A stretch of DNA of 51,029 nt from contig CAZHQS010000001.1 of NCBI GenBank assembly GCA_964534545.1, positions 1 through 51,029 of the forward strand, given 5' to 3'. The stretch comes from Candidatus Hydrothermarchaeota archaeon. Its GTDB lineage: Archaea; Hydrothermarchaeota; Hydrothermarchaeia; Hydrothermarchaeales; JAADFM01. The translations under genes were made by a program, and so were the position numbers. Numbering within the stretch: position 1 is the first letter of the stretch; every line of letters starts with the position of its first letter. Below, in pieces: positions 6,019 to 13,018 of the stretch. Below the pieces are notes generated by a model. The model made no database searches. It was not told where the DNA came from and worked only from the letters and a program-made list of their open reading frames with translations.

Positions 6019-6078
6019 TATTTTATAGTATAAGGGCCCATTTTTACATGTGTGGACTCTGATTTCAGAGGGGATGGA

Positions 6079-8454
6079 ATGAGATACAATCTGCGGAAGG
6101 CAAGCCCATACGTTTTTTTGGTGCTGGCCATTCTTACAGTCGACATGGCATGGGCAGGCCACAACGAAGGTGGGAAGGGCACGGTCCTCACCGCCCAGTG
6201 GACCGATGAGCCCATCACCGTGGACGGCCTTGATTCCGAGGAGGCATGGGACCGGGCGAGGGCCATTATCATCCCTGTTGTGGATGGCAAGGTGGGGGAC
6301 GTGGACGTGGAGATGCGGGCCCTCTATGACTCCGAGTACATCTACTTCTTCGTCCAGTGGCCGGACCCCACCAGGAGCGATACCATCCTCTGGAACCGTT
6401 CCGGGGACCGGTGGTATCCCCCCGCCAAGACCACCGAAGACATCTTCTCCATCTTCTGGAACATCAACGAATCGGTCCAGGGCTACAACATCGCCGGCTG
6501 TTCCATTACCTGCCACGCCGACCGGATGCGCACCAACGAGCCCGGGGAGCTCCTGGACTACTGGAAGTGGAAGGCCGAGAAGGGCAACCCATCGGGCTAC
6601 ATGTGGGACGGCTATCTGGACCACACCCTGGTGGAGGAGGAGGAGTACATCACCACCCCCACGGGCCACAAGGTCCTCAAGACCTGGCACGCTCACAAGA
6701 TGGACGAGACCTCCCCTGGGTATGTGAAGGAGCAGGAGAATGCCCTCCTGGACGATGCCGGGAACTACCTGGGGCCCAGGTATTACATTGCCGAGGGGGA
6801 TACCAGCCATATAACGGCCTCTGATATAGGGGACAAGGCGGTGGAGGTGAAGTACGTCCATGGCACGCCTGTGGAGGTTCCGGCCGGGCTGGATGTCCCC
6901 TTCTACATCTCGGAAAGGCCCCCGGGAAGCGCCGGCGACATCGATGCCAGGGGGACCTACTCGGAGGGGATGTGGAACCTGGAGATCAAAAGGGCCCTCA
7001 GGACAGGCCATCCCGATGACGTCCAGTTTGATACCACGGCCCTCTACTGGTTCAGCATTGCGGTCAACGACGATTCCCACGGCGCTGCCAACGAGGGCAG
7101 GGGGAAGGGCCATTCCATCAGCCTCCTGGCCAAGGCCCTGGAGTTCGGGGGTCTGGGCTCGGAGGAAGTGGCGCACCTGAGCCTCTTAAGGGACTACCTC
7201 ACCACCGCCAGGGTATATGCGGCCCGGGGGGACTGGGGTCTGGCCACCTCCGAGATCAACTACGCCCTGGCCCTGCTGGGAGACGTCAGGAACGAGGTGG
7301 CAGCGGCGGACCCGCAACTCTACATCCATATAAAGGACCATTTCACCCTGGCCAAGAGGGCACCAACCCTGGAAAACATCGACGCCCTCATGGATGAGGT
7401 GGACCTGATGATCCTGACCCTCCAGGGTAAGAGGACCCCCCCCAGGCCGACCCTGACCCAGGCCCTCCTTGTGGCATGGGGCAAGGTCCAGCTTTATTTC
7501 TTCATCTTCCTGGCGGTCCTTGCCCTTTATCCCCTCTACAGGACGGTACAGACCGGCCGGAGGCCGGTCTTCAGGAAGATGAGCCTCTTCCTCTTCCTGG
7601 TCATTGTCCCAGTATTCCTGGAGGGCCTGGGCAGGCTTGGGACGGTGCTGGGGATCCCCTTCCTCTACCGGTTCAGCTTCATGACCTCGGAGGGTGCCAC
7701 CCTCCTCTGGGCCTTCCTGATGTTTTTGGCCCTCCTCATGGCAAGGGCTGGCTTCGCCGAGGTTGACAGGAACATCCAGATCCTGGAGGGCCACAGGGCC
7801 GAGCTGAGGAAGAGGGTCATGGAACGAACCAGGGAACTGGAAGAGACCAAGAATTTCCTGGAGAGCGTCTTCAACGGCATAGGGGAGGGGGTCATCGTCC
7901 TGGACCAGGACTACAAGATCATATCCGCTAACAAGATGTATCTCAAGATGGTAAACCGTTCCGAGGATGAGGTCCTGGGACAGCACTGCTACCAGATCTC
8001 CCACCTCCGGGACACCCAGTGCGGTGAAGCAGATCACCACTGCCCGGTAAAGGAGACCATCTCCACAGGGGAACCCTCCCGGGCCGTCCACACCCATTAT
8101 GACAGGGAAGGCAACGAGTACTATGTGGAGGTGAGCTCCTATCCCCTTCTGGACTCCGAAGGAAAGCTCAAATACATCATCGAGAGTGTCATTGATATCA
8201 CCGAGAAGAGGAAGCTGGAGCAGGAGAAGCTTGAGGCAAAGGATGAGACCATCCGTCAGATGAAGCGCCACGAGAAATACGTCTTCGATGTGGCCGACCG
8301 GCTCCGCAACCCCCTCCAGATCTTCATGGGCCACCTGGAGGACTTCGACACCTCAAACTTCGACCAGGAGCAGAAACGGAGGTTCCAGGTGATCCTGGAG
8401 GCCAGCAGGCTGGTGGAGGAGAATATCAAGAAACTCACGGAAAGGGACAGGTGA
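6079..8454 (+). CDS. transmembrane sensor protein: EB_dh/DOMON-like extracytoplasmic domain, 3 TM, Cys-rich PAS, degenerate DHp, no ATPase domain
   Basis: ATG 6079 starts a signal anchor (MRYNLRKASPYVFLVLAILTV). Outer-domain motifs: ITVDGLDSEEAWDRA, MRALYDSEYIYFFVQWPD, WNLEIKRAL. TM helices at about aa 470-570. PAS with GQHCYQISHLRDTQCGEADHHCP. The H-box-like FDVADRLRNPL has Asp where the His belongs, and the ORF ends about 50 aa later. Confidence 0.75.
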   Translation: MRYNLRKASPYVFLVLAILTVDMAWAGHNEGGKGTVLTAQWTDEPITVDGLDSEEAWDRARAIIIPVVDGKVGDVDVEMRALYDSEYIYFFVQWPDPTRSDTILWNRSGDRWYPPAKTTEDIFSIFWNINESVQGYNIAGCSITCHADRMRTNEPGELLDYWKWKAEKGNPSGYMWDGYLDHTLVEEEEYITTPTGHKVLKTWHAHKMDETSPGYVKEQENALLDDAGNYLGPRYYIAEGDTSHITASDIGDKAVEVKYVHGTPVEVPAGLDVPFYISERPPGSAGDIDARGTYSEGMWNLEIKRALRTGHPDDVQFDTTALYWFSIAVNDDSHGAANEGRGKGHSISLLAKALEFGGLGSEEVAHLSLLRDYLTTARVYAARGDWGLATSEINYALALLGDVRNEVAAADPQLYIHIKDHFTLAKRAPTLENIDALMDEVDLMILTLQGKRTPPRPTLTQALLVAWGKVQLYFFIFLAVLALYPLYRTVQTGRRPVFRKMSLFLFLVIVPVFLEGLGRLGTVLGIPFLYRFSFMTSEGATLLWAFLMFLALLMARAGFAEVDRNIQILEGHRAELRKRVMERTRELEETKNFLESVFNGIGEGVIVLDQDYKIISANKMYLKMVNRSEDEVLGQHCYQISHLRDTQCGEADHHCPVKETISTGEPSRAVHTHYDREGNEYYVEVSSYPLLDSEGKLKYIIESVIDITEKRKLEQEKLEAKDETIRQMKRHEKYVFDVADRLRNPLQIFMGHLEDFDTSNFDQEQKRRFQVILEASRLVEENIKKLTERDR

Positions 8455-8497
8455 CCGCATCAGAGAGGGTTTATATTGCACCAGGACAGTAGGTAAT

Positions 8498-9466
8498 ATG
8501 GATAAAAGAAGGTCCTATGCCATCGGCACCCTGGGTATCTTGCTGAACCTGCTCTACTGGGGCTTTGAGGCAGGGGAGTACGGGCTGGGGGGCCTTGTGG
8601 AGGACTTTTACAGGGCACCCACAGAGCATGTGGTCATCCTCGCCCAGATCCCCCTTTTTCTCCTGGTGGGGCGGGTCTTCTACCTCATGGAGAGGCGGGC
8701 CGAGGAGGTGAACAGGGTCAATGAGAGGCTCCAAAGGGAGATAGACCAGCGCAAGAAGGCCGAGGAGGCCATCAAAAACTATGCCCGAAAGCTGGAGGAG
8801 GTCAATACCATCAAGGATCTCTTCACGGATATCATGCGCCACGACCTGCTGAACCCGGCAGGGTCCATCAAGGTACTGACCGACCTTCTCCTTGATGGCG
8901 AGGAGGACCCTGAAAAGAGGGAGGTACTGGAGAAGATCCAGAAGAACTCCTCAAAGCTCATCGAGATGGTCGAGACCGCCTCCCTCTACTCGAAGCTGGA
9001 GGACGCAGAGACCCTGGCGCGCAGCCGCAGCGATCTCAACACCATCCTGAAAGACTGCCTCAAGGGTCTTGAAACCCAGCTTGAAAAGGCAGGGATGGAG
9101 GTCCTTTATTCCCTGGAGGGGGAGTATCCCGTCCAGGTGAACCCCATCATCGAGAACGTGTTCTCGAACTTCATCACCAACGCCATCAAGTACGCCTCCA
9201 CAGGGAAGAAGATTGAAATCGGTGTCAGGGATGGTGGGGACACGTGGCAGGTCTATGTCAAGGACTACGGAGAGGGCATCGCGGACCTGGACAAGGAGAA
9301 GCTCTTCACCAGGTTCCAGCGCCTGGGAAAGGAGGGGGTCAAGGGGACGGGCCTGGGCCTGACCATTGCCAAACGGGTGGTGGAGCTCCACGGCGGGCGC
9401 ATCTGGGTGGAAGACAATCCCGAGGGTGGGAGCATCTTCTATGTAGAGCTGCCGAAGGCCTCATAG
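8498..9466 (+). CDS. sensor histidine kinase (2 TM, HisKA, HATPase_c)
   Basis: 322 aa. H-box FTDIMRHDLLNPAGSI, N-box NFITNAIKY, G-boxes DYGEGI and GTGLGLTIAKRVVELHGGRIWVEDNPEGGSIFYVELP. Confidence 0.9.
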   Translation: MDKRRSYAIGTLGILLNLLYWGFEAGEYGLGGLVEDFYRAPTEHVVILAQIPLFLLVGRVFYLMERRAEEVNRVNERLQREIDQRKKAEEAIKNYARKLEEVNTIKDLFTDIMRHDLLNPAGSIKVLTDLLLDGEEDPEKREVLEKIQKNSSKLIEMVETASLYSKLEDAETLARSRSDLNTILKDCLKGLETQLEKAGMEVLYSLEGEYPVQVNPIIENVFSNFITNAIKYASTGKKIEIGVRDGGDTWQVYVKDYGEGIADLDKEKLFTRFQRLGKEGVKGTGLGLTIAKRVVELHGGRIWVEDNPEGGSIFYVELPKAS

Positions 9467-9571: not shown

Positions 9572-10663
9572 TTGGATGCCTCTAGAAAGGAACAGTTTCT
9601 GTCCCAGATCGTGGAGAATACCGGTGATGCCATAATAGGCTTTGATCACCAGGGCAATATTAACTTCTGGAACAAGGGGGCCCAGGAGCTCTTCGGCTAC
9701 CGTAGGCTTGAAATCGAGGGACGGCCCTTCAAGATCCTTGTCCCCGAGGACCTGGAGGGGGAGTTTGATGAGATCTTTGAACGATTGAAGGACGGGGAGG
9801 TGATAAAGGGTATGGAAACAGAGCGGGTGGCCAAGGACGGATCCAGGTTATATGTCTCCACCACCTTGAGCCCCATCCTGGACGGGTGGAGGATCATCGG
9901 CTACTCGGCCATCATCAGGGATATCTCGGAGACAAGGGAGCTGAGGGCAATGTTGGCCAAGGCCCGGCAGCTCCAGCAGACCCTCTTCCTGACCGACAAG
10001 CTGGCGAGCCTCTCGGCCCTGGCAAAGGGGATCGCCCACGAGGTGAACAACCCCCTTACAGCCATAATGACCTATACCCAGCTCCTCCTGGAGGACCTTG
10101 GGAAGGTGGAGAAGGACCCTCAGAGGATGGAGAGGAGCCTTAGGAAGATAGAGGAGGATGTGAAGAGGTGCAAGAGCACCCTCAGGCTCTTCCTTGATAC
10201 CGCCGAGACCCCCGACGACATCACCAATATATCCCTGGTGGACCTCATGAAGAAGGTCCTGGCCTTCCAGGAGCAGAGGCTGGTGAACCAGGGGATCCAG
10301 GTGGAGGAGGAGGTGACGGACGTGAAGATCGAGGGAAGCGAGATCCGCCTCTTCCTGGTCTTCAACGGTATCCTTTCCAATGCCATCGAGGCCATGCCGG
10401 AGGGGGGGAGCCTCCGGTACACCATCAAGGAGGAGGACGAAAGGGCCATCATCACCATCAGGGACACCGGGAAGGGCATCCCTCCTGAGGACATCAACAG
10501 GATCTTTGACCCTTTCTTCACCACCAAGGAACTGGGCCAGGGATCCGGGGTGAGCCTGTACTTCTGCTACGATACTATTAAAAGGATGGGAGGTAATATA
10601 ATGGTTGAAAGCAAGGTTGGAGAAGGTTCCACCTTTATCATCCAACTGCCCAGGAAGGGTTGA
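9572..10663 (+). CDS. cytoplasmic PAS-domain sensor histidine kinase
   Basis: 363 aa. PAS (IVENTGDAIIGFD..WNKGAQELFGY), H-box GIAHEVNNPLTAI, and ATPase motifs DTGKGIPPEDINRIFDPFFTTK and GSGVSL. TTG start, so the start is uncertain. Confidence 0.9.
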   Translation: MDASRKEQFLSQIVENTGDAIIGFDHQGNINFWNKGAQELFGYRRLEIEGRPFKILVPEDLEGEFDEIFERLKDGEVIKGMETERVAKDGSRLYVSTTLSPILDGWRIIGYSAIIRDISETRELRAMLAKARQLQQTLFLTDKLASLSALAKGIAHEVNNPLTAIMTYTQLLLEDLGKVEKDPQRMERSLRKIEEDVKRCKSTLRLFLDTAETPDDITNISLVDLMKKVLAFQEQRLVNQGIQVEEEVTDVKIEGSEIRLFLVFNGILSNAIEAMPEGGSLRYTIKEEDERAIITIRDTGKGIPPEDINRIFDPFFTTKELGQGSGVSLYFCYDTIKRMGGNIMVESKVGEGSTFIIQLPRKG

Positions 10664-10666
10664 GGT

Positions 10667-11680
10667 ATGGAGAAGCCATCGATACTGGTTGTGGACGACG
10701 AGGAGTCCATAAGACTCAGCCTCTCCATTCTGCTCAAGAAGGAAGGGTTTCATGTAGAGGAGGCCGCCAGTGGGGAGGAGGCCCTGGAGAAACTGCGGAC
10801 CAACAGGTATGACATCGTCATCAGCGATATCATGATGCCCGAGCTGGATGGCATCACCCTGCTGAAGAAGATCAAGGAGCTGGACCGCAAGATCGATGTG
10901 ATCCTGATCACGGCCTATGCCAACCTGGACCGGGCTATCCAGAGCCTGAGACACGGGGCATCGGATTTCATCCAGAAGCCCTATGAGAACCAGGATATCA
11001 TCAGGGCCGTGTCCAAGATCATGGAGGACAGAAAACTCGAGGCCGCCTTTGAGACAGAGAAGACGTTGCCCTTCGCCTTCAATGCATCACAGAAGGAGCT
11101 GCTCCTGAGGCTCTTCAACGACGGTGTCAAGGACCTGGAGATATCCCTGAAGGAGATTGCGGGAGATATCAAACTCGAGGTCGAGGACCTGACGGTGGAG
11201 GACCTGAAGAACTTCCCGGCCCACGTGGGGGGCGAGGGTGTGCCCATGATGGGGGCCTATGTGGGTATCTACGGGGACCTCTCGGGGAGTTTCATGATGG
11301 TCTTCCAGGTGGAGGACTGCATATCCCTGGTGGAGTTCGTCATCGGGGAGAAGGTGGGGACCATCGATTTCAACCTCCCCACGGAGAGGGGGTCCAAGAC
11401 GGTGATGGAACTGGGGGACATCCTGGCCAACTCCTATCTCCTGGGCCTGAGGGAGTCCACGGAGATGATACTGAAGTCCACACCCCCAACCTTCGTTCAC
11501 TTCACGTCAGGCAACATCAGGTCCTTCATGGAGGTGCGCACCGGGAAGGGGACCCATTACAGCATCCTCACCCCCCTGAGGGTGTCCTTTGTGACCGACA
11601 CGGCCCGGACCCTGGTGGGCTACCTGATCTCCATCTTCGGACTCCGGAGCATGCGGTTGCTCTCCGAGAAGATTGTATGA
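10667..11680 (+). CDS. response regulator: receiver domain fused to a CheC/CheX-like C-terminal domain
   Basis: REC motifs VVDDEES, DIVISDIMMPELDG and ILITAY..K. The C-terminal 200 aa carry VMELGDILANSYLLGL..STPP, which resembles but does not exactly match the CheC ExxN..P motif. Confidence 0.7.
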   Translation: MEKPSILVVDDEESIRLSLSILLKKEGFHVEEAASGEEALEKLRTNRYDIVISDIMMPELDGITLLKKIKELDRKIDVILITAYANLDRAIQSLRHGASDFIQKPYENQDIIRAVSKIMEDRKLEAAFETEKTLPFAFNASQKELLLRLFNDGVKDLEISLKEIAGDIKLEVEDLTVEDLKNFPAHVGGEGVPMMGAYVGIYGDLSGSFMMVFQVEDCISLVEFVIGEKVGTIDFNLPTERGSKTVMELGDILANSYLLGLRESTEMILKSTPPTFVHFTSGNIRSFMEVRTGKGTHYSILTPLRVSFVTDTARTLVGYLISIFGLRSMRLLSEKIV

Positions 11681-11693
11681 GGGGATGGAGGGG

Positions 11694-11719
11694 GAACATG
11701 TTCGGGGAAAGGATATTAT
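11694..11719 (+). promoter_or_regulatory. 10-bp perfect palindrome GAACATGTTC followed by GGGGAAAGGATATTAT (BRE/TATA-like); copy 1
   Basis: Seen directly. It lies 37-62 nt upstream of the ATG at 11756. A near-identical copy is at 13024..13050. Confidence 0.55.
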
Positions 11720-11755
11720 CCCCCCGCAGGGAAGTATGATAGAGGTGATCTCCTG

Positions 11756-13018
11756 ATGGGCAAGAGGACCTCCATCTTCTGCATGGCCGCTGCCAATGTG
11801 TACTTCGTCCTTGCTCTCTTCCTGGGGCTTTTGATGATCCTGGGGGTGGTCGGGTCCGGGGAATTCAAGACTGCCCACGCCCACCTGGCCCTCCTGGGCT
11901 GGGTCTCTCTGACCATCATAGGGGCCATGTACGAGCAGGTCCCCAACCTCACCGCCGCCGACCTCTACAGCAAAAAGACAGCCTGGTGGTCCTTCTGGGT
12001 CTACAACCTGGGCCTGGTGGGTCTGGCAGGGGGACTGGCCTTTGAGGTCCCCGATATCCTCCTGGCGACCTCCGCGGCCCTCCTCCTCCTGGGCGTATAT
12101 GCCTTTGCCGGCAATATCTTCATGACCGTAAAAAACCGCCGGGCCCCCAACCCCATCCTGAAGTTCTATACAGCCTCGGTGGTCTATTTCGTCCTGGCCT
12201 CCACCTTCGGCGGTGCCCTGGTGCTGAACCGCATGGGGGTAATCGACCTCACCACCGTTTTTGTCAGGTACACAACCGCCCACGCCCACCTGGGATTTTT
12301 GGGCTGGGCCTCCCTCATCATCATCGGGGCCCTCTCCTGGATGTTCCCCATGGTGGTCATGAGGGACATCCACAGCCAGAAGCTCATGGATGCCGTCTTC
12401 TGGCTATTCAACCTGGGGGCCATGGGTTTCGCCCTGGGCCTTTTGACCGGGGGGCTTGGCACCCTCTCCCTGGCCTCCGCCCTGGTGGTGTTCCTGTCCA
12501 TAGCCCTTTTTTCCTACAACCTCCTCATGACGGCCCTGAAAAAACAGGTGAAGATGCAGATGACGGCCGATGCCACCGAGGCCCCCTTCTTCTATGGTGC
12601 GGTTTTCTATTTCTTCCTGGTGGCCCTCCTGGGCCTTGCCATGCTCCTTGGGCCGGAGACCGTAAAGTCCGTCTCCCCCGCCCACGGCCACCTGGCCCTC
12701 CTGGGCTTTGTCTCCCTGACCATCTTCGGGGGCATGTACCACCTCATACCCATGCTCACCTGGACCCTCATAACCAAGAAGATGGCGGCCGCCGGACCCC
12801 AGGGGTCCCCCCCATCCCTGCCCAAGTCCCTCCACGAGCTCTACAGCGTCAAACTGGCCAAGGTGGTCTTCTGGGGCTTCAACCTGGGTACCCTGGCCCT
12901 CGGGGCAGGCATGTACCTGGGCCAGCAGACCCTGGCTGCGGCCGCCGGCCTGGTCCTTTTTGCCTCGGGGACCCTCTTTAGTCTGGACATGTTCAGATGC
13001 ATCAAAAGGGGGCTATAG
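11756..13018 (+). CDS. 12-TM membrane protein with three internal 4-TM repeats, each with an HxH..LGW motif (heme-copper-oxidase helix-X-like)
   Basis: 420 aa. TAHAHLALLGWVSLTIIGAMYEQVP (H41/H43), TAHAHLGFLGWASLIIIGALSWMFP (H176/H178), PAHGHLALLGFVSLTIFGGMYHLIP (H310/H312). FW-x-F/Y-NLG also repeats three times. Confidence 0.8.
   Translation: MGKRTSIFCMAAANVYFVLALFLGLLMILGVVGSGEFKTAHAHLALLGWVSLTIIGAMYEQVPNLTAADLYSKKTAWWSFWVYNLGLVGLAGGLAFEVPDILLATSAALLLLGVYAFAGNIFMTVKNRRAPNPILKFYTASVVYFVLASTFGGALVLNRMGVIDLTTVFVRYTTAHAHLGFLGWASLIIIGALSWMFPMVVMRDIHSQKLMDAVFWLFNLGAMGFALGLLTGGLGTLSLASALVVFLSIALFSYNLLMTALKKQVKMQMTADATEAPFFYGAVFYFFLVALLGLAMLLGPETVKSVSPAHGHLALLGFVSLTIFGGMYHLIPMLTWTLITKKMAAAGPQGSPPSLPKSLHELYSVKLAKVVFWGFNLGTLALGAGMYLGQQTLAAAAGLVLFASGTLFSLDMFRCIKRGL

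Follow-up and report, generated by a model that had tools for sequence, protein, structure and literature searches.

An archaeal membrane sensor ending in an ATPase-less HisKA-type hairpin with aspartate at the phospho-acceptor position, and the small receivers encoded beside its relatives

We analysed a stretch of 51,029 nucleotides (hereafter the window; positions 1 to 51,029 of contig CAZHQS010000001.1, assembly GCA_964534545.1, Candidatus Hydrothermarchaeota archaeon) with regards to the gene at 6079..8454. This gene encodes a sensor protein ending in a hairpin that resembles the dimerisation and histidine phosphotransfer (DHp) domain of histidine kinases, having Asp at the position of the phosphorylated His and no ATPase domain (Table 1). 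The open reading frames (ORFs) upstream of the sensor gene, encoding S24e, kae1 and bud32, gave an archaeal setting, and all close homologues carrying a source name came from Hydrothermarchaeales. The source genome comprises 1.93 Mb in 225 contigs, those referred to below being denoted C9, C29, C32, C36, C43, C79, C101, C151 and C177. Judging from the hydropathy of its transmembrane (TM) segments, the EB_dh part of the sensor lies outside the cell, with the PAS domain and the hairpin inside. The anatomy proposed in the original prediction, which had been read from the bare letters, was recovered in all its parts, none of them more than a few bases off its stated position. This included the signal anchor, found by hydropathy, the EB_dh/DOMON-type outer domain (PF09459, 94.3 bits compared to a cut-off of 33.3 bits, E 1.5e-26), the motif C-S-I-T-C-H, present exactly where it had been placed, and three TM helices after the outer domain, now located between residues 463 and 560. 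The Cys-rich PAS domain, expected at about 7981..8055, was likewise found, with E 1.5e-16 and a Cys3/His cluster at 7987..8043. The codon proposed to give Asp in place of the H-box His was indeed GAC (Asp740), and the ORF, said to stop about 50 residues further on without an ATPase, ended after 51 residues with no HATPase_c match at E ≤ 1. The next gene (here called P0002), described as a complete kinase with a scant sensory part, encodes HisKA and HATPase_c domains preceded by an N-terminus of approximately 65 residues with two TM helices.

The relation of the hairpin to HisKA domains became more evident when its homologues were included. The Pfam HisKA family (PF00512, cut-off 26.9 bits) scored 13.8 bits on the whole sensor (E 0.062, aa 737-786) and 18.8 bits on the isolated hairpin, while eight of eight homologous hairpins matched it, with a best E-value of 1.4e-9. 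A profile of eight hairpins placed V-A-D-R-L-R-N-P-L onto (V/I/M)-S-H-E-(L/I)-R-T-P-L of the solved kinases 7z8n, 4i5s and 4jas, so that the Asp sits exactly at the phospho-His position, which is numbered 0 in the following. In the eight-member alignment Y, V-A-D, L-R, P-L-Q, L, I and L-T were invariant, and we refer to the module as the D-box, defined as Y-[VI]-x-x-V-A-[DH]-x-L-R-N-P-L-Q ... [IL]-x-x-L-T with no catalytic and ATP-binding (CA) domain after it. An AlphaFold2 (AF2) model of the sensor C-terminus gave a PAS domain followed by a 48-residue helix (139-186), a loop and a 26-residue helix (194-219), with predicted local distance difference test (pLDDT) values of 86-94. Its top full-length Foldseek matches were LOV-histidine kinase chimeras and YF1, i.e. 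PAS/LOV-DHp kinases, over 211-217 columns.

Members of the D-box family were gathered from a search of the order, a representative library (giving P0076, P0083 and P0164), genome and metagenome collections, a profile search of the phylum and a search among 5.8 billion proteins. When the genome and metagenome collections were scanned by pattern, each yielded three loci only, as the patterns were narrow; they also forced an Asp, and the Asp count is therefore based on searches with hidden Markov models (HMMs) and on sampling from the receiver side, the latter revealing His variants. The whole-protein search of the order returned other proteins that matched the last ~100 residues alone, with 47% identity and the same box. 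The region-restricted search of 5.8 billion proteins gave 10 matches, and the family is hence rare; outside this genus it was found in one of 36 other genomes of the phylum. Bacterial members formed a clade of 314-318-residue Cys-PAS-PAS-box proteins from metagenome-assembled genomes (MAGs), with hairpins 50-65% identical between archaea and bacteria. In the genome of the sensor itself the family HMM found seven members at 63.7 bits or higher (141.9 bits for the sensor), compared to at most 15.7 bits for every true kinase DHp domain. Derivation of the D-box from the local DHp domains of the P0002 type was rejected on the same score, giving no signal above those 15.7 bits.

Position 0 was Asp in 21 of 25 family members and His in three receiver-side loci (L059, L062 and L064). 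Among the 21 distinct Asp members, position +1 was R, G or S in all except one, +4 was Asn in 19, +7 was Gln in all and -9 was His in 19. The proteins ended 47-68 residues after the Asp, typically with K-L-T and stop, apart from two copies embedded in kinases. These two (P0083, and the L032 protein of the same-genus genome G018) carry two DHp-type hairpins in one polypeptide, the L032 gene (5764-8070) encoding two TM helices, the Asp hairpin, a series of PAS domains and an ordinary HisKA(His)-HATPase core. The hairpin is also more strongly conserved than ordinary DHp domains. By these alignments and scores, the D-box is a discrete, rare and reusable output module, derived from HisKA and, in the Asp members that are not embedded in kinases, having neither the His nor the ATPase.

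The EB_dh domain, the helical region and the three TM helices form a cassette that was found in about 40 proteins, 40-54% identical to the sensor. Most of these relatives carry (PAS-)HisKA-HATPase, including P0008, a full-length paralogue on contig C32 of the same genome; other outputs, seen among P0016, P0018, P0020, P0022, P0035, P0037, P0038 and P0040, were HD-GYP, DUF835 or none at all (644-665 aa). The cassette is thus a portable outer sensor with interchangeable outputs, little studied so far and probably heme-based. Its HD-GYP form, P0040, came from a Thermodesulfobacteriota MAG. Among the cassette proteins, the ending of PAS domain and His-less hairpin was found solely in the sensor and in the metagenomic P0004 (72% identical) and P0005 (67%). 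All three share Y-V-F-D-V-A-D-(R/G)-L-R-N-P-L-Q and stop 51-58 residues after the Asp, and the hairpin dN/dS (ratio of nonsynonymous to synonymous substitution rates) among them was 0.12-0.26, similar to the rest of the gene. The orthologues thereby retain both Asp and stop, instead of the normal His with fused ATPase that according to the original prediction would have spoken for a local truncation. As frame, Asp and stop are kept and dN/dS is low, truncation or pseudogene formation could be dismissed and the gene is, as far as its sequence tells, intact and conserved; since the combination recurs in two orthologues and the gap between hairpin and DHp scores is wide, it is no chance pattern either. 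Decay in situ of the transmitter seen in the relatives was also rejected, because the C-terminal 230 residues constitute a different module, with Cys-PAS and D-box, 47% identical to P0076.

The recurring neighbour of D-box genes was a single-domain receiver of ~112 residues with the pattern ILVAEDD..AYNG.EAV..RPDL.LMDIKMP..AVTAYRY.EEELGV.VLRKGF. It was encoded directly downstream, often with overlapping stop and start codons, at L033 (genome G025), L051 (contig C43), L050 (contig C177) and the bacterial L036/L055 and L057. Four such receivers occur in the genome of the sensor (two on C43, one each on C151 and C177), scoring 240, 134, 120 and 82 bits compared to at most 40 bits for other receiver (REC) domains, and the subfamily comprises about 68 clusters at ≥ 50% identity. 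In the converse approach, seven loci on long contigs (L058-L064) were sampled starting from the receiver. A box protein without CA domain was found immediately upstream in six of these seven, with a kinase of P0002 core in the remaining one (L058). As gene order has it, the conserved genomic partner of the D-box family is a small CheY-like receiver, not a kinase. The bacterial loci also hold a PAS kinase and a hybrid kinase (REC-HisKA-HATPase-REC) beside the box gene and the small receiver.

The three His-bearing boxes also lacked an ATPase, reading E-V-A-H-R-L-R-N-P-L-Q in L059, E-V-A-H-S-L-R-N-P-L-Q in L062 and R-V-A-H-E-L-R-N-P-L-Q in L064. L061 and L062 were compared directly: these box proteins are 69% identical over 681 residues and their receivers 63% identical, both loci consisting of box sensor, REC protein, ABC binding protein and dCache kinase of the P0002 type, with Asp (GAC) at position 0 in L061 and His (CAC) in L062. 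His and Asp are, in these aligned sequences, exchanged by a single nucleotide between orthologues with the rest of the module kept, and the function of the module can therefore not require a phospho-His.

Several further observations concerned the small receivers. On contig C43 (L051 3420-8591, minus strand) a P0002-type kinase, a 7TM-PAS-Asp-hairpin sensor, a small receiver and a P0002-type Cys-PAS kinase are encoded in one cluster of four genes, three of which had their boundaries checked and are separated by short gaps; this is the clearest full example in the genome of the kinase, receiver and hairpin triad proposed below. Contig C177 (L050 376-1393) encodes a 250-residue fusion of REC and Asp hairpin, followed by an 87-residue copy of the small receiver missing ~27 residues (roughly alpha1 to alpha2), which may be degenerate. 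Two of the four small receivers (C43:1317-1679 and C151:90-566) have A-E-D-Y for A-E-D-D at the N-terminal acidic pair and may be pseudo-receivers. At L058 (3190-5706) the close receiver homologue has a minimal P0002-type kinase on one side and, on the other, a STAS protein together with a REC-HATPase_c_2 protein, an arrangement linking the receiver subfamily to a partner-switching module.

Table 1. Features of the sensor gene, neighbouring genes, and D-box copies with their positions (those of the window unless a contig or locus is named).
Feature	Position	Strand	Basis or remark
Sensor ORF	6079..8454	+	791 aa plus stop; same 791-aa product in protein collection (P0003)
Signal anchor or signal peptide	6100..6156 (aa 8-26)	+	Hydropathy scan
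EB_dh/DOMON-type beta-sandwich outer domain	6262..7083 (aa 62-335)	+	Pfam PF09459, six-frame match, Foldseek
C141-S-I-T-C145-H146 (CX3CH)	6499..6516	+	Candidate covalent heme site, or disulfide plus His ligand
Juxtamembrane helical region	7084..7458 (aa 336-460)	+	Family conservation; no Pfam family matched
His345 (G-x-G-H-S)	7111..7113	+	Invariant in 42/42 family members; candidate second axial ligand
Three TM helices	7465..7758 (about aa 463-490, 503-521, 537-560)	+	Hydropathy; conserved in homologues; C-terminus cytoplasmic
Cytoplasmic PAS domain	7855..8211 (aa 593-711)	+	Pfam PAS_9, E 1.5e-16; AF2 model and Foldseek
Cys3/His cluster of PAS, C637-x4-H642-x5-C648-x6-C655-P	7987..8043	+	Read from sequence
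D-box hairpin: helix 1, loop, short helix 2, stop	8215..8451 (aa 713-791)	+	Alignments, profile against PDB kinases, AF2
His731 (position -9, H-E-x-Y)	8269..8271	+	Kept in 19/21 Asp members; no role assigned
Asp740 (GAC) at phospho-acceptor His position	8296..8298	+	Alignment to solved kinases, codon read
Asn744 (position +4)	8308..8310	+	Equivalent of T/N needed only for HisKA phosphatase activity
Small two-TM histidine kinase P0002 (HisKA with His, HATPase_c)	8498..9466	+	Pfam, hydropathy
Soluble PAS-HisKA-HATPase kinase, H-box AHEVNNPL	9572..10663	+	Pfam
Response regulator, REC plus ~200-aa CheX-like region	10667..11680	+	Pfam; directly after sensor orthologue in L001
His-bearing box gene, small receiver next	L059 928-3519
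His-bearing box gene, small receiver next	L062 1947-3998
His-bearing box gene, small receiver next	L064 3320-3895
D-box copy 1, the sensor	6079..8454		Input EB_dh sensor
D-box copy 2	C36		334 aa; input PAS-PAS
D-box copy 3	C43		487 aa; input HisKA_7TM-PAS
D-box copy 4	C177		250 aa; input REC
D-box copy 5	C79		161 aa; input two or three TM helices
D-box copy 6	C79		98 aa; no input; divergent T-A-D-D-L-W-S-P-L-Q
D-box copy 7 (P0083)	C29 (L053 1389-5315)	-	1309 aa; two-TM, D-box, PAS domains, HisKA(His)-HATPase

With regards to the inputs, an AF2 model of the outer domain (mean pLDDT 61, with a confident beta-sandwich core and poor insertions) matched NxrC (7b04_C, E 5.5e-10), EbdC (2ivf_C, E 2.4e-7) and CBM9 modules in Foldseek, and the EB_dh family profile found NxrC also by sequence (E 5e-6). 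The domain thereby resembles the heme b proteins EbdC and NxrC of the EB_dh family in its beta-sandwich fold and in passing the Pfam threshold. Those proteins are, however, electron-transfer subunits, whereas the domain studied here serves as the input of a sensor, is anchored by three TM helices and has a conserved CX3CH and the invariant His345. Over 42 family members C141, C145 and H146 were conserved to 95%, M150 to 90%, H345 to 100% and K304 to 62%, so that H146, M150 and H345 are the conserved candidates for axial ligands; in EbdC the axial ligands are a Met/Lys pair, to the Met of which Met150 might correspond. A search for heme ligands by alignment to solved EB_dh structures matched NxrC alone and skipped the CX3CH and ligand region, and the AF2 model, having pLDDT below 50 in the CX3CH region, gave no ligand placement. 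The motif is CX3CH, compared to CXXCH in c-type cytochromes. CcmF- and CcmC-like cytochrome c maturation genes were found at C101:2267-4671 and C9:20088-20774, suggesting that this archaeon would be able to make covalent heme proteins outside the cytoplasm, and covalent heme at the CX3CH is therefore possible. A non-canonical heme c site at this conserved motif would be plausible given these genes, and the outer domain probably binds heme.

The cytoplasmic PAS domain is of a common subtype and not peculiar to this protein, as the motif C-[YH]-x3-H-x4-7-C-x4-8-C-P was present in 80 of its 149 best PAS relatives, which were mostly ordinary kinases such as P0088. It probably binds a metal or an Fe-S cluster. 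The PAS domain of OrpR, which holds a [4Fe-4S] cluster by three Cys residues (PMC8359166), is the closest characterised analogue that we found. It shares with the sensor, as does NreB, the cytoplasmic PAS domain, the three conserved Cys in the first half, the redox-sensing context and an anaerobic host, but the spacing is C-x10-C-x6-C plus His here compared to C-x8-C-x3-C in OrpR, and the cofactor is to be regarded as putative. From the EB_dh and Cys3/His PAS inputs together we infer redox or gas sensing.

The original prediction had further viewed the sensor and P0002 as a sensory and a catalytic module encoded apart. That both belong to the same signalling system is probably correct, since kinases of the P0002 type recur by D-boxes, flanking them or being fused to them on C43, in P0083 on C29, in L032 (G018) and in L061/L062. 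The gene pair as such was not conserved, for P0002 was absent beside both orthologues (L001 and L002). Moreover, P0002 represents the commonest kinase core in the genome (13 of about 25), and its adjacency is therefore weak evidence. Its type is recognised by the H-box LFTDIMRHDLLNP, reading LFTD(I/V)(M/L)(R/H)HDL(L/M)NP in the C43 kinases. P0002 is, on these gene neighbourhoods, not a conserved partner of the sensor, and pairing through DHp helices is not the favoured link. Gene fission with P0002 as the lost half was rejected, because P0002 has a TM domain and DHp of its own and is missing beside the orthologues. The core type also counters it, being unlike that of the EB_dh kinases, with P0008 (A-H-E-I-N-N-P-L) scoring 63 bits against the P0002 core where P0002-type kinases score above 145.

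Taken at the level of its sequence, the protein is a functional membrane sensor with a kinase-dead HisKA hairpin as output module, and not a kinase. A DHp domain without a CA domain cannot autophosphorylate, which leaves dimerisation, docking of a receiver and positioning of water for hydrolysis of phospho-Asp as remaining functions. In HisKA proteins Thr or Asn at H+4 is the sole residue needed exclusively for phosphatase activity, whereas the acidic H+1 serves kinase activity (PMC3510030). For archaeal 'HisKA, no HATPase' proteins that bear the His, a role as phosphatases has been put forward before (Galperin et al. 2018, PMC5847659). The D-box has lost His, acidic +1 and ATPase while keeping the R-N-P-L-Q core, including Asn at +4, with Asp one turn before it; for these reasons, together with the role already suggested for archaeal proteins, we favour an action on a receiver. 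Most likely, the sensor would control docking of a receiver domain by the D-box four-helix bundle, and the docked receiver would lose its phosphoryl group or have it masked. This would oppose the conventional P0002-type kinases, one of them encoded next door. The odds that the hairpin acts on a receiver by signal-gated docking seem to us evenly balanced, and that dephosphorylation in particular is its chemistry is a more tentative proposal, with odds of about one in three. The receiver of the present sensor could be one of the four small ones encoded on other contigs or the REC-CheX-like regulator, whose gene is syntenic in L001. Going further, we propose, again with a probability of about one in three, that the hairpin is a signal-gated CheZ-like receiver phosphatase (D-x3-N) on a DHp scaffold that with P0002-type kinases and a dedicated receiver makes up a three-component system. 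Kinase arm and phosphatase arm would then stand under separate sensors, with the heme-type outer domain and the PAS domain, carrying Fe-S or metal, controlling the phosphatase arm in the present case, and the seven D-box sensors of the genome would converge on few receivers.

A number of observations weigh against an action on a receiver of this kind. CheZ and NarX use D-x3-Q and CheX uses E-x2-N (PMC3510030), and the likeness of D740-x3-N744, a pair present in 19 of 21 members, to the former is one of analogy, with Asn and not Gln as the amide; in the two other Asp members +4 is Asp or Ser. The sensor itself has no small receiver beside it, being followed by two kinases and then the REC-CheX-like regulator. 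The receiver near it, in the window as in L001, is of that other type, with none visible in L002, and when D-box genes were the starting point, roughly half of the loci had no receiver next to the box. The position of the D-box inside the complete kinases P0083 and L032, between TM and PAS domains, would fit plain dimerisation or signal transmission. Finally, the specificity stretch (+7..+19) was conserved only modestly more in the paralogues than in true kinases (0.48 compared to 0.31-0.40), and an argument for a common partner based on this stretch was abandoned because the effect was that weak.

It could instead be, though we find it unlikely, that the sensor and P0002 are halves of one kinase, the Asp-DHp hairpin pairing with the DHp domain of P0002 in a heterodimer or higher-order bundle and controlling its autophosphorylation. 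For this speak the adjacency of the genes across 43 nt, the fusion of D-box and P0002-type core in P0083 and L032, and the homology of the two-TM N-terminus of P0002 to 2TM-D-box proteins (E 5e-8). The order of kinase, D-box sensor, receiver and kinase on C43, both kinases being of the P0002 type, and the presence in one genome, G018, of both L031, a small 2TM-D-box protein, and L032, a kinase of the 2TM-D-box kind, point the same way, and RetS-GacS and RocA-CovS provide precedents. Against it speak the orthologues, which lack P0002 as a neighbour. With about half of the kinases in the genome being of this type, such adjacency is moreover expected fairly often, and the D-box shows no sequence affinity to DHp domains of the P0002 type (at most 15.7 bits). 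D-box proteins also occur in G025 and the bacterial clade, where no kinase bears a D-box, and the TTTATATT box before the ATG at 8498 points to a separate promoter for the kinase. We regard as very improbable that the gene is a decaying remnant, a kinase gene minus ATPase and His with no output function. The complete kinases among most EB_dh-TM relatives and the subthreshold HisKA score of the sensor taken alone would agree with decay, but not the low dN/dS of 0.12-0.26 with frame, Asp and stop kept in the orthologues, hairpins 50-65% identical between archaea and bacteria, seven paralogues in one genome or a C-terminal module with 47% identity to P0076 in place of a degraded transmitter.

The receiver adjacency that underlies our proposal would serve equally well for a pseudokinase signalling in reverse, in which the hairpin binds the phosphorylated small receiver without hydrolysis, either as an input to the sensor or as a means of holding the receiver back or placing it at the membrane. 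The model for this is DivL, which is reported to have a non-His residue (Tyr) in place of the phospho-His and to bind DivK~P (PMC4211667). A weak match of DivL to the D-box profile was found (4q20_A, E 0.082), and interchange of His and Asp would agree with a function limited to binding. For binding alone, however, there would be no need to keep the near-invariant Asn at +4 and the Asp at 0, DivL keeps a CA domain as part of its mechanism where the sensor has none, and no downstream target of reverse signalling was visible; we hold this to be slightly less probable than pairing with P0002. Rather improbable, in our view, is a histidine phosphotransferase resembling Spo0B or ChpT, relaying phosphate between receivers via His731 at -9, or via the His at position 0 in the His members. 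The hybrid kinase of the bacterial loci, lying beside box gene and receiver, would need such a phosphotransfer protein, His -9 is kept in 19 of 21 Asp members, and for the class that bears the His, phosphotransfer is regarded as possible by Galperin et al. (PMC5847659). Yet neither P0076 nor the 161-residue protein of C79 has His -9, which moreover, as read from the alignment, falls on heptad positions of the helix core. The strictly conserved residues are instead those surrounding position 0, where most members have Asp and where orthologues exchange Asp for His, a swap that would change the chemistry if position 0 were the acceptor and hence counts against phosphotransfer.

Several known systems resemble the sensor and its D-box in architecture or logic. 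One is the 'HisKA, no HATPase' class of archaeal 'nonenzymatic HK-like proteins', listed in P2CS as 'possible incomplete histidine kinase' (PMC5847659), which like the sensor combines sensor domains with a C-terminal HisKA-like hairpin devoid of HATPase and, like the D-box, has several copies per archaeal genome. That class was described with a conserved His, whereas the D-box has Asp in 21 of 25 members and has lost the acidic +1; nor were a link to a receiver subfamily and a His/Asp interchange described for it (PMC5847659). The bifunctional HisKA proteins EnvZ, CrdS and HK853 share with the D-box the fold, the x-L-R-N-P-L neighbourhood and Asn at +4, but the D-box has no His, acidic +1 or CA domain, so that only the phosphatase or binding half could remain. 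In CheZ and NarX (D-x3-Q), CheX (E-x2-N) and Spo0E the likeness lies in an acidic and an amide residue that are spaced by a single helical turn within a dimeric helix bundle. CheZ-type phosphatases also target a single-domain CheY-like receiver, as is presumed for the D-box. These proteins nonetheless show no sequence homology to the D-box, which moreover is coupled to large sensory domains. In DivL of Caulobacter, RocA and RetS the phospho-His is replaced and signalling proceeds via DHp contact with DivK or with the partner kinases CovS and GacS; DivL and RetS, however, keep the CA domain and are unrelated to the D-box in sequence, and the putative D-box partner is the one indicated by gene order. 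The general class of kinase-less HisKA proteins and the pseudo-kinases DivL, RocA and RetS are thus already known. In the literature we found neither an Asp-for-His, CA-less HisKA family nor its receiver partner described.

Annotation routinely lists HisKA proteins without a kinase domain as histidine kinases, and what they do in archaeal signalling is still a matter of question. The D-box family offers a natural experiment in this regard, with orthologues that differ in His or Asp at the phospho-site, are all devoid of ATPase and lie beside one receiver subfamily. A function depending on the DHp hairpin alone and independent of phospho-His thereby becomes testable, the candidates being a module that binds receivers or a phosphatase dedicated to them. 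If the proposal holds true, this would be a new type of output for two-component signalling, kinase and phosphatase arms could sit under different sensors, and the annotation of the family would have to be corrected.

Some minor observations were made on the surrounding genes. In L001 the sensor orthologue is followed directly by a REC-CheX-like regulator and a COX1-like gene, the counterparts of those starting at 10667 and 11756 in the window, and the two kinases lying in between in the window have hence either been inserted there or been lost from L001. The regulator and the COX1-like 12-TM protein stay together in both places (window 10667-13018, L001 7043-9397). In L002 the orthologue is followed by a TIM gene on the opposite strand. 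Beside the paralogue P0008 on C32 (L005 6831-8296, minus strand) lie a P0002-type PAS kinase (H-box LFTDIMRHDLLSPAG) and another Cys-PAS domain (CYEVSHHSDCPCKGLDCP). A TATA-like box, TTTTATAGTATAA, was found about 45-60 nt before the ATG at 6079 (about 6019-6036), and the one mentioned above for the kinase lies 21-28 nt before the ATG at 8498, within 8455-8497. These positions suggest that the sensor and the small kinase have separate promoters and that the kinase mRNA is nearly leaderless.

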